IMG/VR virus record: IMGVR_UViG_3300034954_001721
DNA: 64,000 nucleotides
DNA from: a virus
Direction: 5' to 3' (one strand)
Each line of letters opens with the position of its first letter. Within the stretch, counting starts at the first letter, position 1. Below, one piece after another: positions 6,383 through 47,823 of this stretch. Under the pieces are notes generated by a model. It did not search any database, was not told where the DNA came from, and was given only the letters and a program-made list of their open reading frames with translations. The position numbers were made by a program, and so were the translations under genes.

Positions 6383-6398
6383 GTATAAACCACTACAC

Positions 6399-6425
6399 AG
6401 CATCTCTTGACAGGGGTGCTTTTTT
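6399..6425 (+). terminator. Intrinsic terminator of the glycan operon, overlapping the hli promoter
   Basis: AGCATCTC-ttgaca-GGGGTGCT stem followed by a T-run. Confidence 0.7.
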
Positions 6426-6435
6426 ACTATATAAT
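6407..6435 (+). promoter_or_regulatory. Sigma70-type promoter for the hli cluster
   Basis: TTGACA-17 nt-TATAAT, perfect consensus. Confidence 0.85.
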
Positions 6436-10236: not shown

Positions 10237-10284
10237 ACATAATGTAGAACGTTACGAAACGTAACACTCAAACACCCCACAAAC

Positions 10285-10390
10285 CAAGACCTCTAGGGTG
10301 TATAAAAACGTCTTTCATATCCTCTCTAAGGGTGAGAGGAAATAGTAACTCCACCATTTCCCTGATGGTCTTACTTTTTTGTTTAAAACA
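10285..10390 (+). ncRNA. Structured psbA 5' leader, PhotoRC-II-like cis-regulatory RNA
   Basis: Stems CCTCTC/GAGAGG, ACCAT/ATGGT and GTAA/TTAC in a long leader directly upstream of phage psbA; boundaries approximate. Confidence 0.55.
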
Positions 10391-45756: not shown

Positions 45757-46116
45757 ATGAATAAAGAAGTTACAGAGGTGTCCACAGAGACATCTGTGGA
45801 GAAGAAACCTATGTATTCTTGGACACAATCAGAAAAAGATAACTCCAAAAAACTTTATGGAGTTGAAATTATGATTGAGAATGGCACACTGGAGCAAGTC
45901 AAGACAAAAGACTGTCCTAATGATGCCAGGATTGTTACTTATGAGGTTGATGGTGAAATCAGATATGATTTGACTCGTAGTCAAAAAGCAGTCAATATTT
46001 TTGATATGTACTATGATAAATTTGGTAAGAGTTTAAAAGATATTCAGTTTGGTGAAGGGAGACACAATCCTAAACTCTGGGGGATTCAAGCACCCAAAAC
46101 CAAAAAGAAGAAGTGA
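45757..46116 (+). CDS. Hypothetical protein
   Basis: GGAG SD; clean ORF. Confidence 0.65.
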   Translation: MNKEVTEVSTETSVEKKPMYSWTQSEKDNSKKLYGVEIMIENGTLEQVKTKDCPNDARIVTYEVDGEIRYDLTRSQKAVNIFDMYYDKFGKSLKDIQFGEGRHNPKLWGIQAPKTKKKK

Positions 46117-46176
46117 TTTCCCAGATCGGGGGAAAAAATTCCGGCAAAAATTTTGCTTCTTAAAGTTTTTTAAAAA

Positions 46177-46192
46177 TGTATCATAAGTTACA
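46177..46192. promoter_or_regulatory. NtcA-box-like palindrome
   Basis: TGTA-TCATAAGT-TACA equals GTA-N8-TAC, ending 8 nt upstream of the -35. Confidence 0.6.
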
Positions 46193-46199
46193 TAATTAC

Positions 46200-46228
46200 T
46201 TGACTACATAGTGTATAGGAGTTATAAT
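46200..46228 (+). promoter_or_regulatory. Sigma70-type promoter
   Basis: TTGACT-17-TATAAT. Confidence 0.8.
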
Positions 46229-46237
46229 ACTCTAGTA

Positions 46238-46469
46238 CGTTCATCCCACTCTTGGGTGGGACGCAAGTAAGTCGCGGAACGGAGCGTTCATCCCATGTTA
46301 ATAGAATCACTTCTATACGCAACACTCAATTGTCAAGATTCTGATGCGATTATGCTCAGGATCGCTAGACATGAATCTTTACCACCTAAGGTAAAGATTG
46401 AGTTGGTTGAGACCGTAAGGGAAGCAACCGAACCTGAGTGTTACTGGGACGCAAACGACTGAAGGAACG
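46238..46469 (+). ncRNA. Tandem glutamine-riboswitch-like aptamers (glnA/Downstream-peptide class)
   Basis: Unit 1 46238-46281: CGTTC-a-TCCCAC/GTGGGA-cgcaagtaagtcgcg-GAACG. Unit 2 46285-46469: CGTTC-a-TCCCA...TGGGA-cgcaaacgactgaag-GAACG. Confidence 0.6.
46295..46462 (+). CDS. 55-aa ORF nested in the aptamer-2 loop (not in ORF track)
   Basis: GGAG SD at 46281; MLIESLLYATLNCQDSDAIMLRIARHESLPPKVKIELVETVREATEPECYWDAND. Confidence 0.6.
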   Translation: MLIESLLYATLNCQDSDAIMLRIARHESLPPKVKIELVETVREATEPECYWDAND

Positions 46470-46504
46470 GGGCTAAAAATCCCTAGTATTTCAGGTAACG
46501 ACAA

Positions 46505-46672
46505 ATGAACACACTAACTCTCATCAAGAAGCAAATCGAGAAGGCAGCAGCACTGCATGACGCTCAGATCACTCACACATCATATCGTGGTGTTGAGTAT
46601 GATACTCGTTGTGTAGAAAGCAAAGAGTCACACGGCACTTTCTGCTATCGTGGTCACACTTATAACAAGTGA
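46505..46672 (+). CDS. DUF4278-like small protein (not in ORF track)
   Basis: Two YRG motifs: TSYRGVEY and FCYRGHTY; downstream of the riboswitch-like element. Confidence 0.7.
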   Translation: MNTLTLIKKQIEKAAALHDAQITHTSYRGVEYDTRCVESKESHGTFCYRGHTYNK

Positions 46673-46679
46673 GGCAATT

Positions 46680-46775
46680 ATGCAAGCAATTCAAGTAGCA
46701 TCATTAGGTTCTATTTTTATCATTGCATTTCTTGGTTTACTTTACGGAGAACTCACACTTTTGCATAAGAGGTGA
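46680..46775 (+). CDS. 31-aa TM peptide (not in ORF track)
   Basis: GAGG SD; MQAIQVASLGSIFIIAFLGLLYGELTLLHKR. Confidence 0.55.
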   Translation: MQAIQVASLGSIFIIAFLGLLYGELTLLHKR

Positions 46776-46789
46776 GAAAATTAATAATC

Positions 46790-46817
46790 AAAGAGGGGTT
46801 TCGACCCCTCTTTTTTT
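46790..46817 (+). terminator. Intrinsic terminator
   Basis: AAAGAGGGGT-ttcg-ACCCCTCTTT followed by a T-run. Confidence 0.9.
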
Positions 46818-46848
46818 ATGCTATAATAAGTGCAGTGTATACACTATT

Positions 46849-47034
46849 ATGGACAAGGAACGACTAAAACTTATCGTTCGTAATCTTGAACTATTAGTTG
46901 ATGGATTGAAAGCAGAAGTTTACTCTGATCCAAGTGCTTACATGGATAAAAGAGAAAACTTTGATGATCCAGCACATTATTACAAAGCAGACTACGACGA
47001 GGTATTCAACGATGACGACGGGTATCCCGACTGA
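46849..47034 (+). CDS. Hypothetical protein
   Basis: MDKERLKLIVRNLELLV...; acidic tail. Confidence 0.65.
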   Translation: MDKERLKLIVRNLELLVDGLKAEVYSDPSAYMDKRENFDDPAHYYKADYDEVFNDDDGYPD

Positions 47035-47191
47035 ACGGGCAAGAAAGTATATGAAATTGCTTCGCAGATTGGTGAAGCAAGAACATCTTTATACAGAAGA
47101 AAAACTGATTGAGATGAAGAAACAATTGCGGGTTTTAGAAGAAGAGCTTGCTGTGCTAGAATCAAAAGTGTCAAAAGGATTTGGTAAATGA
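47012..47191 (+). CDS. Hypothetical coiled-coil protein (start uncertain)
   Basis: KLLRRLVKQEHLY...SKGFGK. Confidence 0.55.
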   Translation: MTTGIPTERARKYMKLLRRLVKQEHLYTEEKLIEMKKQLRVLEEELAVLESKVSKGFGK

Positions 47192-47823
47192 GTGTAAAAC
47201 TGATCAGTGTAACTCCCGATGCGGAGAAGATGATGGCATACGTTGCTCGTGTGTCAAACCCCAATAACCAGGAAAACCCTAACTACGCAAAATTATTGGG
47301 TTACTGCATTAAGCACAACCACTGGTCTGTGTTTGAGCAGGCATTTATGACTCTGGAACTTCAAACTACCAGAGGGGTGGCGGCTCAAGTGCTCCGGCAC
47401 CGTTCGTTCACATATCAAGAATTTTCGCAACGCTATGCTGACAGTTCTATGTTGGCAGAACGTATTCCCCTTCCAGAACTTCGCAGGCAGGACACTAAAA
47501 ATCGCCAGAATTCTATTGATGATATTGATCCCTTTGTGAATCAAGAGTTTCAAATCAAAATGGAAAATCATTTCCAAGAAGGTATGAAACTCTATCAAGA
47601 GATGCTTAAATATGGCATCGCAAAGGAGTGTGCTCGTTTTGTGCTTCCTCTTGCCACACCCACCAGAATTTACATGTCTGGTTCATGTCGCTCATGGATT
47701 CATTATATCAATCTCCGTACTGCTAACGGCACTCAGAAAGAGCACATGGACCTTGCAGAAGGTTGTAAGAAAGTGTTTATTGAGCAGTTTCCAACTTGTG
47801 CAGAAGCCCTTGAGTGGGTCTAA
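47188..47823 (+). CDS. thyX: Flavin-dependent thymidylate synthase
   Basis: HWSVFE, RHRSFTYQEFSQRY, ECARFVLP. Confidence 0.95.
   Translation: MSVKLISVTPDAEKMMAYVARVSNPNNQENPNYAKLLGYCIKHNHWSVFEQAFMTLELQTTRGVAAQVLRHRSFTYQEFSQRYADSSMLAERIPLPELRRQDTKNRQNSIDDIDPFVNQEFQIKMENHFQEGMKLYQEMLKYGIAKECARFVLPLATPTRIYMSGSCRSWIHYINLRTANGTQKEHMDLAEGCKKVFIEQFPTCAEALEWV

Follow-up and report, generated by a model that had tools for sequence, protein, structure and literature searches.

Can a phage read the nitrogen status of its host, and by how many routes? The question is raised by a short transcription unit at positions 46177 to 46817 of the 64,000-nucleotide stretch of DNA analysed here (the window), which comes from a T4-like cyanomyophage (IMG/VR virus record IMGVR_UViG_3300034954_001721). 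Glutamine riboswitches, NtcA boxes and their links to DUF4278 genes are known. A sequence-only reading of the locus had joined them in one proposal, in which a box, a promoter, two aptamer-like units in simple tandem, three small open reading frames (ORFs) and a terminator form a self-contained nitrogen-sensing unit. Each of these elements was found where it had been placed: the unit has its own promoter and its own terminator, the ORFs lie at 46295-46462, 46505-46672 and 46680-46775, and in related phages the box keeps a fixed offset and the stems covary. Nitrogen sensing is a reasonable interpretation of the unit. The riboswitch families, the DUF4278 peptide and the conserved box stand, but the simple tandem and the canonical geometry of NtcA activation do not. 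In place of the tandem, the leader is probably a glutamine riboswitch composed of two interlocked aptamer-like three-way junctions, each of which would act as the 'loop' of the other's third helix. The explanation as a whole, with this nested riboswitch heading an early-type transcription unit of a T4-like cyanomyophage, is the one that we favour, with some reserve.

The leader contains two CGTTCATCCC...GGGACGCA...GGAACGG units, whose 5′ halves lie at 46238 and 46285 and whose 3′ halves cover 46258-46282 and 46446-46470. The second unit is split, with ORF1 between its halves. The strands are:

46238-46242, plus strand: A1 (CGUUC), 5′ strand of the outer P1, pairing with B2 as judged by covariation
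46244-46261, plus strand: hairpin 1 (UCCCAC/GUGGGA) of the outer junction, with compensatory changes
46262-46269, plus strand: outer joining strand CGC-AAGUA, the ligand-site triplet and the type-1 E-loop strand
46270-46274, plus strand: H5 (AGUCG), 5′ strand of the long-range helix common to both junctions, pairing with H3
46277-46289, plus strand: inner hairpin with B1 GAACG (46277-46281), loop GAG (46282-46284) and A2 CGUUC (46285-46289)
46291-46295, plus strand: 5′ strand of P1(2) (UCCCA), ending on the first base of the ORF1 start codon
46295-46462, plus strand: ORF1, 55 amino acids, inside the P1(2) loop (phrog_504, E 4e-24)
46445-46455, plus strand: 3′ strand of P1(2) (UGGGA) and inner joining strand CGC-AAA
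46456-46460, plus strand: H3 (CGACU), 3′ strand of the long-range helix, covarying with H5
46461-46470, plus strand: E-loop strand GAAG, B2 GAACG (46465-46469), which closes the outer P1, and G46470

Two candidate folds were compared. The tandem fold pairs A1 with B1 and A2 with B2; the nested fold pairs A1 with B2, H5 with H3 and B1 with A2. In the nested fold, the outer junction would have the type-1 (glnA) layout, with A1:B2 as P1, hairpin 1, the strand CGC-AAGUA, H5:H3 as third helix and GAAG. The 'loop' of the H5:H3 helix would be the second junction, made of the B1:A2 hairpin, the hairpin P1(2) and CGC-AAA.

Relatives were drawn from IMG/VR contigs in three sets, about 300 cyanomyophage contigs overall: 80 loci chosen by ORF2 protein similarity, 120 loci chosen by a junction pattern with no constraint on the pairing positions, and three targeted scans for variants. 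For the comparison of folds, 98 distinct ORF1-bearing leaders were aligned, comprising all variants and 70 random leaders of the common type; variants are over-represented in this sample. All of the 1862 cells of the nested structure (100%) were paired, and every helix contained a compensatory pair. For the outer P1, a CGUUC/GAACG helix closing a three-way junction as in type 1, the column pair 5:317 (A1:B2) was CG in 89 leaders, UA in nine and never unpaired. B2 read AAACG only where A1 read CGUUU (11 of 11 full-length contigs), and in one contig (L280) A1 and B2 had changed beside wild-type B1 and A2. The long-range helix varied likewise, with 87 GC and 11 AU pairs at columns 61:308. Among the relatives, H5/H3 was AGUCG/CGACU in 157 cases and AGUCA/UGACU in 49, with one A-C exception and a few others showing G-U; a targeted scan for variants at position 4 of H5 gave no match. 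This pairing holds at a strand spacing of 18 to 24 nucleotides as well as across the intervening ORF1, and the helix is flanked by AAGUA (46265-46269) and GAAG (46461-46464), as the third helix of type 1 is. A GOS sequence in the alignment of Weinberg 2010 (PMC2864571) also has AGUCA/UGACU. In the inner hairpin, the column pair 64:77 (B1:A2) was GC in 85 leaders and CG in 13, and CAACG in B1 appeared only together with CGUUG in A2, never singly, in several hairpin-1 and loop backgrounds. P1(2), the fourth helix of the alignment, was paired in 100% of the leaders and read either UCCC/GGGA (n=129) or CCCC/GGGG (n=6), never mixed, across about 150 nucleotides. Hairpin 1 had compensatory changes at three of its four closing pairs among 31 compact relatives.

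Glutamine binding by the leader may be expected from its nucleotides. In the solved glutamine-II structure, the ligand site is formed by C1:G40 and G2:C39 with G18, C19:G41 and G35 (PMC6698751). Counterparts of C1-C5, A6, C17-G18-C19 and G35-G41 are present by sequence in both junctions, and the inner junction retains every ligand-site nucleotide. Ligand-site positions that the search pattern did not fix were invariant in 170 sequences; among them, the first base of the inner loop, equivalent to G41, was always G, and the rest of the loop is variable. In the outer junction, the joining strand CGC matches the type-2 triplet C17-G18-C19 (PMC6698751). The whole strand, CGC-AAGUA, aligns to ACGGAAGUA of RF01739 in the matches on compact relatives described below, and the stretch of GAAG and B2 aligns to GAAGGAACG.

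Membership in the glutamine riboswitch families was decided by these relatives. In the whole window, no glutamine riboswitch was matched at the Rfam gathering thresholds; the sole match at that level was a PhotoRC-II RNA at 10262-10353 (75.5 bits). In E-value mode, unit 1 alone was matched, by RF01704 with 28.4 bits (threshold 33) and by RF01739 with 26 bits (threshold 35). Compact relatives without ORF1 gave single spanning RF01739 matches of 38 to 45 bits, above the threshold of 35 (L061 45, L089 43.6, L077 41.6, L118 40.3, L202 40.2, L106 39.6 and L111 38.4 bits), and two of them also passed the RF01704 threshold, which the window does not (L202 35.7, L111 34.0). The spanning matches combine the 5′ portion of unit 1 with the 3′ portion of unit 2, and in them AAGUA and GAAG flank a helix AGU...ACU; these matches were the first hint of the nested fold. 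The window escapes Rfam because ORF1 fills the inner hairpin loop, and the spanning fold is unscorable across the 181-nucleotide insert (46275-46455) between the strands of H5 and H3. The Rfam comparison that the sequence-only reading had called for went against the window itself and in favour of its compact relatives, and through the latter the family membership of the leader was upheld.

The element is widespread. Positions 46236-46672 match 422 cyanomyophage records at 66-80% identity, and among 65 unique loci picked by ORF2 protein similarity alone, the 3′ core is kept in all 65 and the full junction in 63. In the RefSeq genome of S-CAM4, ORF1 and ORF2 are annotated as hypothetical proteins without an RNA feature, and thyX lies downstream; in the window, too, a thyX-like ORF follows the unit (47188-47823). 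S-RIM2, S-SM1 and Syn19 are, like S-CAM4, cultured phages that carry the element.

The second route by which nitrogen status might be read is transcriptional, and it is here that a competing explanation survives best. The elements concerned, with the terminator of the unit, are:

46177-46192, plus strand: NtcA-type box TGTA-N8-TACA, recognized by sequence (core GTA-N8-TAC at 46178-46191)
46200-46228, plus strand: sigma-70-type promoter TTGACT-17-TATAAT, with 11 of 12 consensus matches
46790-46820, plus strand: intrinsic terminator, a 10-bp stem (46790-46813) with five G-C pairs and a 4-nucleotide loop, and a T-run

The promoter is the best promoter-like site in a scan of 45900-47200, its -35 and -10 elements are conserved among relatives, and distant BLAST homology starts at 46236. 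The predicted transcription start at about 46235-46237 would put the aptamer at the extreme 5′ end of the RNA. The box ends 8 nucleotides upstream of the -35 element, with its centre at about -50.5/-51.5 from the predicted start. An exact GTA-N8-TAC stands at the same 8-nucleotide offset in 88 of 200 related promoter parses (106 with at most one mismatch); in these parses, GTA and TAC are retained around a variable N8 interior, and the box seldom stands at another offset. The significance of the box lies in this conserved position, because the motif alone is common in the window, with 26 sites where 14.4 would be expected. Judged by its sequence and placement, the box is a real element bearing the signature of host NtcA, as had been claimed, and the GTA-N8-TAC signature was used earlier for predicting NtcA sites in cyanomyophages (PMC3037559). 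It would add a transcriptional input from upstream of the -35 element, most plausibly through host NtcA with 2-oxoglutarate, and NtcA is predicted to bind there. The canonical activator geometry was not borne out. The box itself is that of NtcA class II promoters, but its centre lies near -51 and not near -41.5 in place of the -35 element, a full consensus -35 (TTGACT) is present, and the window sequence has no convincing -10-like hexamer about 22 nucleotides after the box, the class II arrangement. The box may equally well serve activation or, as at host gifB, repression or modulation.

It is quite possible, if on balance the less probable case, that the box is not an NtcA site here and instead serves another factor, belongs to a mobile promoter cassette, or is bound by NtcA with no regulatory effect. 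Several observations speak in this direction and against an NtcA input. A centre at about -51 beside consensus -35 and -10 elements departs from class II geometry (PMC6212724) and is atypical for activation by NtcA, about half of the related promoters have no box, GTA-N8-TAC is common in the window, and the promoter carries further conserved features, namely a palindrome over the -10 element and a CTAAATA-like spacer. Against this explanation stand the retention of GTA and TAC at one fixed offset around a variable interior, which is the host NtcA signature, and the control of host gifB-type genes by NtcA (PMC6212724).

The further promoter features deserve a brief description. The palindrome covers the -10 hexamer (46218-46233 in the window, about 1360-1378 in L061) and ends 0 to 4 nucleotides before A1. 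Its stems measure 6 to 8 bp in 114 of 168 relatives and 3 to 4 bp in shuffled sequences; its arms differ by lineage and are still complementary (AGGTCTAT/ATAGACCT, TATGGTA/TACCATA, TGTCATG/CATGACA), and the window's own version is weaker (GGAGT/ACTCT). This suggests a hairpin, either in the DNA or in an RNA started upstream. Right after TTGAC, the spacer has a conserved T-A-W-A-T-A, with CTAAATA in 41% of relatives and CTACATA in the window (46204-46210). It resembles the T4-type late-promoter motif of cyanomyophages, a likeness that suggests dual early and late promoters and that recalls the PeSL cassettes of T4-type phages. Just upstream of the box, a conserved A/T-rich motif is CCGGCAAWTTTTTGGTCTGTAGGG-like in relatives (L141, L157, L172) and reads TTCCGGCAAAAATTTTGC in the window (46120-46176). 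The only other promoter-like site of the window near a GTA-N8-TAC box lies at 6383-6435, where the box (6383-6396) is followed after 10 nucleotides by TTGACA-17-TATAAT.

For the RNA, the foremost alternative is the one contained in the sequence-only reading, an ordinary tandem in which A1:B1 and A2:B2 close two pseudo-cooperative aptamers, ORF1 is tolerated in the loop of the second, and the nested helices represent a ligand-free alternative. We consider this unlikely. Each unit does have the sequence of a complete aptamer, and RF01704 matches single units above threshold in L202 and L111. In Weinberg 2010 (PMC2864571), a GOS sequence with this architecture is aligned as a compact aptamer of unit 1, and Sherlock 2022 (PMC9481103) lists 157 glutamine doublets as pseudo-cooperative tandems. 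Among the variants, however, both tandem helices are mismatched where the nested helices pair perfectly: at the same columns of the 98 leaders, the two helices specific to the tandem contain 13 and 14 unpaired cells, and neither shows compensation. H5 and H3 covary between the two units, and the full type-1 E-loop (AAGUA with GAAG) forms only across them. The two aptamers do not each have a P1 and a platform of their own, and one sequestor/Shine-Dalgarno platform only is seen for both units. Covariation favours the strand-swapped nested fold over two self-contained aptamers, and that part of the earlier proposal had to be given up.

The nested fold also has points against it. Few independent events stand behind each nested-specific helix. 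The A1:B2 covariation comes from one lineage, and B1 and A2, only 3 to 4 nucleotides apart, may spread jointly by recombination. A tree of ORF1 and ORF2 requires no fewer than 11 changes for the CAACG/CGUUG state and seven for the H5/H3 states; recombination is more likely to be reflected in these than that many independent events. Our count is therefore at least one compensatory event per nested helix, against zero for the helices of the tandem. Variation falls on the pair C5:G36, which of all pairs lies farthest from the ligand, and a tandem state with one mismatch could still work. In loci with unit 2 only, of the L040 and L281 type, A2:B2 pairing can be the sole option. Nearest-neighbour energies were -81.1 kcal/mol for the nested fold, -78.6 kcal/mol for the tandem fold and -86.7 kcal/mol for an unconstrained fold that includes the sequestor; in this minimum-energy fold, A1 is paired with B1. 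Where type 1 has CGG, the outer joining strand reads CGC, and the window falls below the gathering thresholds of both RF01739 and RF01704. Finally, the variant scans held much of the core sequence fixed, so that the conservation figures are conditional on those patterns.

If the leader is the nested riboswitch, how would it act on the genes that follow? The relevant features are:

46459-46494, plus strand: sequestor hairpin CUGAAG (46459-46464)/UUUCAG (46489-46494), recognized by covariation
46505-46672, plus strand: ORF2, 55 amino acids, a double-YRG peptide with a 22-residue N-terminal extension (phrog_545, E 3e-36)
46680-46775, plus strand: ORF3, an ORF call, 31 amino acids, an accessory hydrophobic single-helix peptide

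On its 5′ side, the sequestor overlaps H3 and the E-loop strand, and on its 3′ side the AGG (46493-46495) of the Shine-Dalgarno sequence of ORF2 (AGG/AGGAG). Its variable pair was A-U in 33 cases, G-C in 28, G-U in 26 and never A-C, and the hairpin is present in the unconstrained minimum-energy fold. Because its 5′ strand shares CU with H3 and contains GAAG, the sequestor and the nested fold are mutually exclusive, and covariation in both would fit a switch. When glutamine is low, CUGAAG would pair with the ORF2 Shine-Dalgarno region. When it is high, the nested fold would be stabilized, drawing CU into H5:H3 and GAAG into the E-loop, so that the Shine-Dalgarno sequence is freed and the IF17-like ORF2, with ORF3, may be translated. 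The direction is taken from the hosts: both host types of glutamine riboswitch are ON switches ahead of DUF4278 genes (PMC6212724, PMC6698751), and glutamine would therefore favour the nested fold and release ORF2 translation. Masking of the ORF2 start AUGAAC by GUUCAU of A1, which one computed fold showed, was also considered and rejected, as orthologues starting with MAQV or MAKV have no complement.

The nested fold would also bury the start region of ORF1. From this follows a tentative and rather doubtful extension, namely that one fold gates two sets of phage genes in opposite directions, burying the starts of the loop genes and releasing the IF17-like Shine-Dalgarno sequence on glutamine. 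It combines strand-swapped aptamers that share a helix with paralogous, cysteine-clamped proteins in the hairpin loops, ORF1 here and ORF0 in other phages. If it holds, the phage switches between two small-protein programmes according to host nitrogen status, by a riboswitch architecture without a described counterpart whose ligand-binding core is also protein-coding.

There is a slim chance that the riboswitch mainly controls ORF1 and that ribosomes ending at its stop codon open the sequestor, so that ORF2 is translationally coupled and its output tracks ORF1 translation rather than glutamine directly. The geometry is suggestive: 163 of 166 leaders have the ORF1 stop at the same spot in CGAC-UGA-AGG, the base that covaries in the sequestor is the middle one of this stop, both of its states still give stop codons, and the ORF1 start adjoins P1(2) and A2. 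Yet compact relatives without ORF1 keep the sequestor and ORF2, and control of ORF2 can for that reason do without ORF1. Moreover, no conserved Shine-Dalgarno sequence precedes ORF1, where the inner loop varies (GAG, GAU, GUUC and others). Scarcely credible is a leader that no longer senses glutamine and serves as a stability or processing element, or is kept only for coding the C-terminus of ORF1: the sub-threshold Rfam scores of the window and CGC in place of the type-1 CGG would allow it, but the core is equally conserved in compact relatives without ORF1, which pass the Rfam thresholds, and all ligand-site positions are kept.

By its pattern of substitution, ORF1 is a coding gene. Among 166 unique leaders, the ATG beside the P1(2) stem and the position of the stop are kept in 163, the length ranges from 48 to 66 amino acids, and all insertions and deletions are in frame. 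Differences at the three codon positions are 0.44/0.25/0.54, with a pN/pS of 0.53. AlphaFold2 (42 sequences, pLDDT 84.6) gave a two-helix hairpin bracketed by the invariant cysteines C13 and C49. Searches of Pfam for the function of ORF1 gave no match, Foldseek against the PDB found nothing below E = 1, and the ESM Atlas returned unnamed viral clusters only. The protein ends in W-D-A-N-D, and the codons for this end, like the UGA stop, lie in the aptamer 3′ core; the invariant C-terminus D-A-N/H-D with its stop is read from GAC GCA AAC GAC UGA, which is the aptamer core. The same 3′ core is conserved in compact relatives without ORF1. The conservation is therefore at the RNA level, and the RNA dictates that part of the protein. 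The covarying sequestor base leaves the ORF1 stop as UGA or UAA, and in 47 of 174 leaders the P1(2) stem spans the whole ORF1 AUG. A paralogue of ORF1, ORF0 (hhalign probability 93%, E 3e-7), sits in hairpin 1 of about a quarter of relatives (42 of 135 parsed loci; L001, L003, L085, L093, L143 and others) and is not found in the window. It encodes 65 to 69 amino acids, has its start and stop codons in the stem and has two conserved cysteines about 38 residues apart.

ORF2 is, on its sequence, a divergent DUF4278 (IF17-like) peptide with an N-terminal extension. The claim that it is DUF4278-like fell just short for the window itself, which reaches 24.4 bits (E 3.8e-5) where PF14105 requires 25.3, and held for its orthologues: six of nine positional orthologues, which are shorter forms, pass with 26.0 to 30.4 bits. 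All 130 unique ORF2 orthologues contain exactly two YRG motifs, a short YRG peptide after the aptamer as noted by Weinberg 2010 (PMC2864571). According to Klahn 2018 (PMC6212724), the C-terminal part that Synechocystis IF17 needs is missing from short marine IF17-like proteins. An action of ORF2 on host glutamine synthetase, which its family resemblance would suggest, may be supposed. For ORF3, Pfam and PHROG searches gave no family match; about a quarter of relatives have a similar peptide after ORF2.

The family is modular, and its majority form resembles the window. Compact forms without ORF1 comprise L061 and 30 others, and L054 and L074 have a non-coding insert in hairpin 1. Among the more unusual arrangements, L040 is a deletion derivative with unit 2 and ORF1 only, L077 is fused between B1 and the middle of ORF1, and the losses in L281, L283, L288, L289 and L291 comprise the promoter as well as unit 1. 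The aptamer halves form direct repeats that look prone to recombination. L096 has an ORF1 unit, a terminator-like hairpin and then another ACGTTCATCCC 5′ half, with a different gene replacing ORF2; aptamer halves may be reused there as module boundaries. A scan of one genome per prokaryotic species found the full element in only six records (L309, L317, L324, L329, L331 and L340), and the rest were mostly chance matches in Streptomyces. The six are filed as Synechococcus, Verrucomicrobiales, Euryarchaeota and uncultured-bacterium metagenome-assembled genomes (MAGs), with a 188-kb contig of a Nonlabens xiamenensis isolate assembly. Some are 188-194 kb long and others are small contigs from unrelated MAGs; all are probably phage DNA binned or co-assembled with cellular genomes. 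In the one genome per species, this pattern revealed no copy of the nested form on a cyanobacterial chromosome.

How does the element relate to known systems? It shares with the type-1 riboswitch the CGUUC/GAACG P1, the three-way junction, a hairpin, the AAGUA/GAAG E-loop and a third helix. Both stand ahead of a DUF4278 gene. The type-1 riboswitch (glnA RNA, RF01739) precedes gifB/IF17 in Synechocystis (Klahn et al. 2018, PMC6212724); it is a translational ON switch whose gene is also controlled by NtcA, and the box and riboswitch of the window would parallel this dual control of host gifB. Unlike type 1, the window has a third helix formed by strands 186 nucleotides apart, whose loop is a second aptamer-like junction holding a protein gene; it has CGC for CGG, is phage-borne and lies at the extreme 5′ end of the RNA. 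The type-2 riboswitch (Downstream-peptide, RF01704; Yfr6 of Prochlorococcus MED4; structure 6QN3; PMC6698751) occurs in the hosts of these phages. It has in common with the window the CGC linker with a partner G of the C19:G41 type, a 3′ hairpin enclosing GGAACGG and short YRG peptides downstream. In the window, in contrast, the GGAACGG hairpin is a competing sequestor and not a stable P2, and the RF01704 score is 28.4 bits against a threshold of 33.

Two adjacent aptamer-like units are also found in the tandems of Sherlock et al. 2022 (PMC9481103) and Weinberg et al. 2010 (PMC2864571), and the glnA alignment of the latter includes the GOS member of the same architecture. Those tandems are described as independent riboswitches in series, whereas the window would have swapped strands, a shared helix and one platform. 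Sherlock 2022 (PMC9481103) lists glutamine doublets as independent and pseudo-cooperative and does not use the words nested or interleaved. A glnA match of 99 nucleotides and 44 bits has been given for cyanophage S-CREM1 (PMC9964418), a paper without a description of the inner junction, the strand swap or the ORF-bearing majority form. Matches of this type are probably the compact form of the same element, like L061 (88 nucleotides, 45 bits).

Two further systems invite comparison. The tandem glycine riboswitch consists of two homologous aptamers with inter-aptamer contacts and one expression platform. Each glycine aptamer closes its own P1, whereas in the window the P1 strands would be exchanged and one aptamer would lie within a helix of the other. 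Group I and group II introns house ORFs in peripheral loops of a conserved functional RNA fold. Unlike these, the window would offer a metabolite sensor with an ORF that is not a mobility enzyme and that shares its start, final codons and stop with the functional core. Neither the interlocked fold nor the genes in its loops seem to have been described before; no description was found in the literature searched, outside of which two primary aptamer papers lay.

Few metabolite sensors are as small as glutamine riboswitches, whose tandem forms have so far been taken for independent units. If two aptamers exchange strands and share a helix, the dose-response of glutamine doublets would have to be modelled differently. 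Genes housed in aptamer loops, whose start, C-terminus and stop are written over the sensor, would represent a tight layering of RNA and protein information in phage genomes, and because such genes sit in the loops, covariance-model scans miss the majority form. With 422 records, the element offers a handle on how abundant ocean viruses read host nitrogen and possibly disturb the control of glutamine synthetase.

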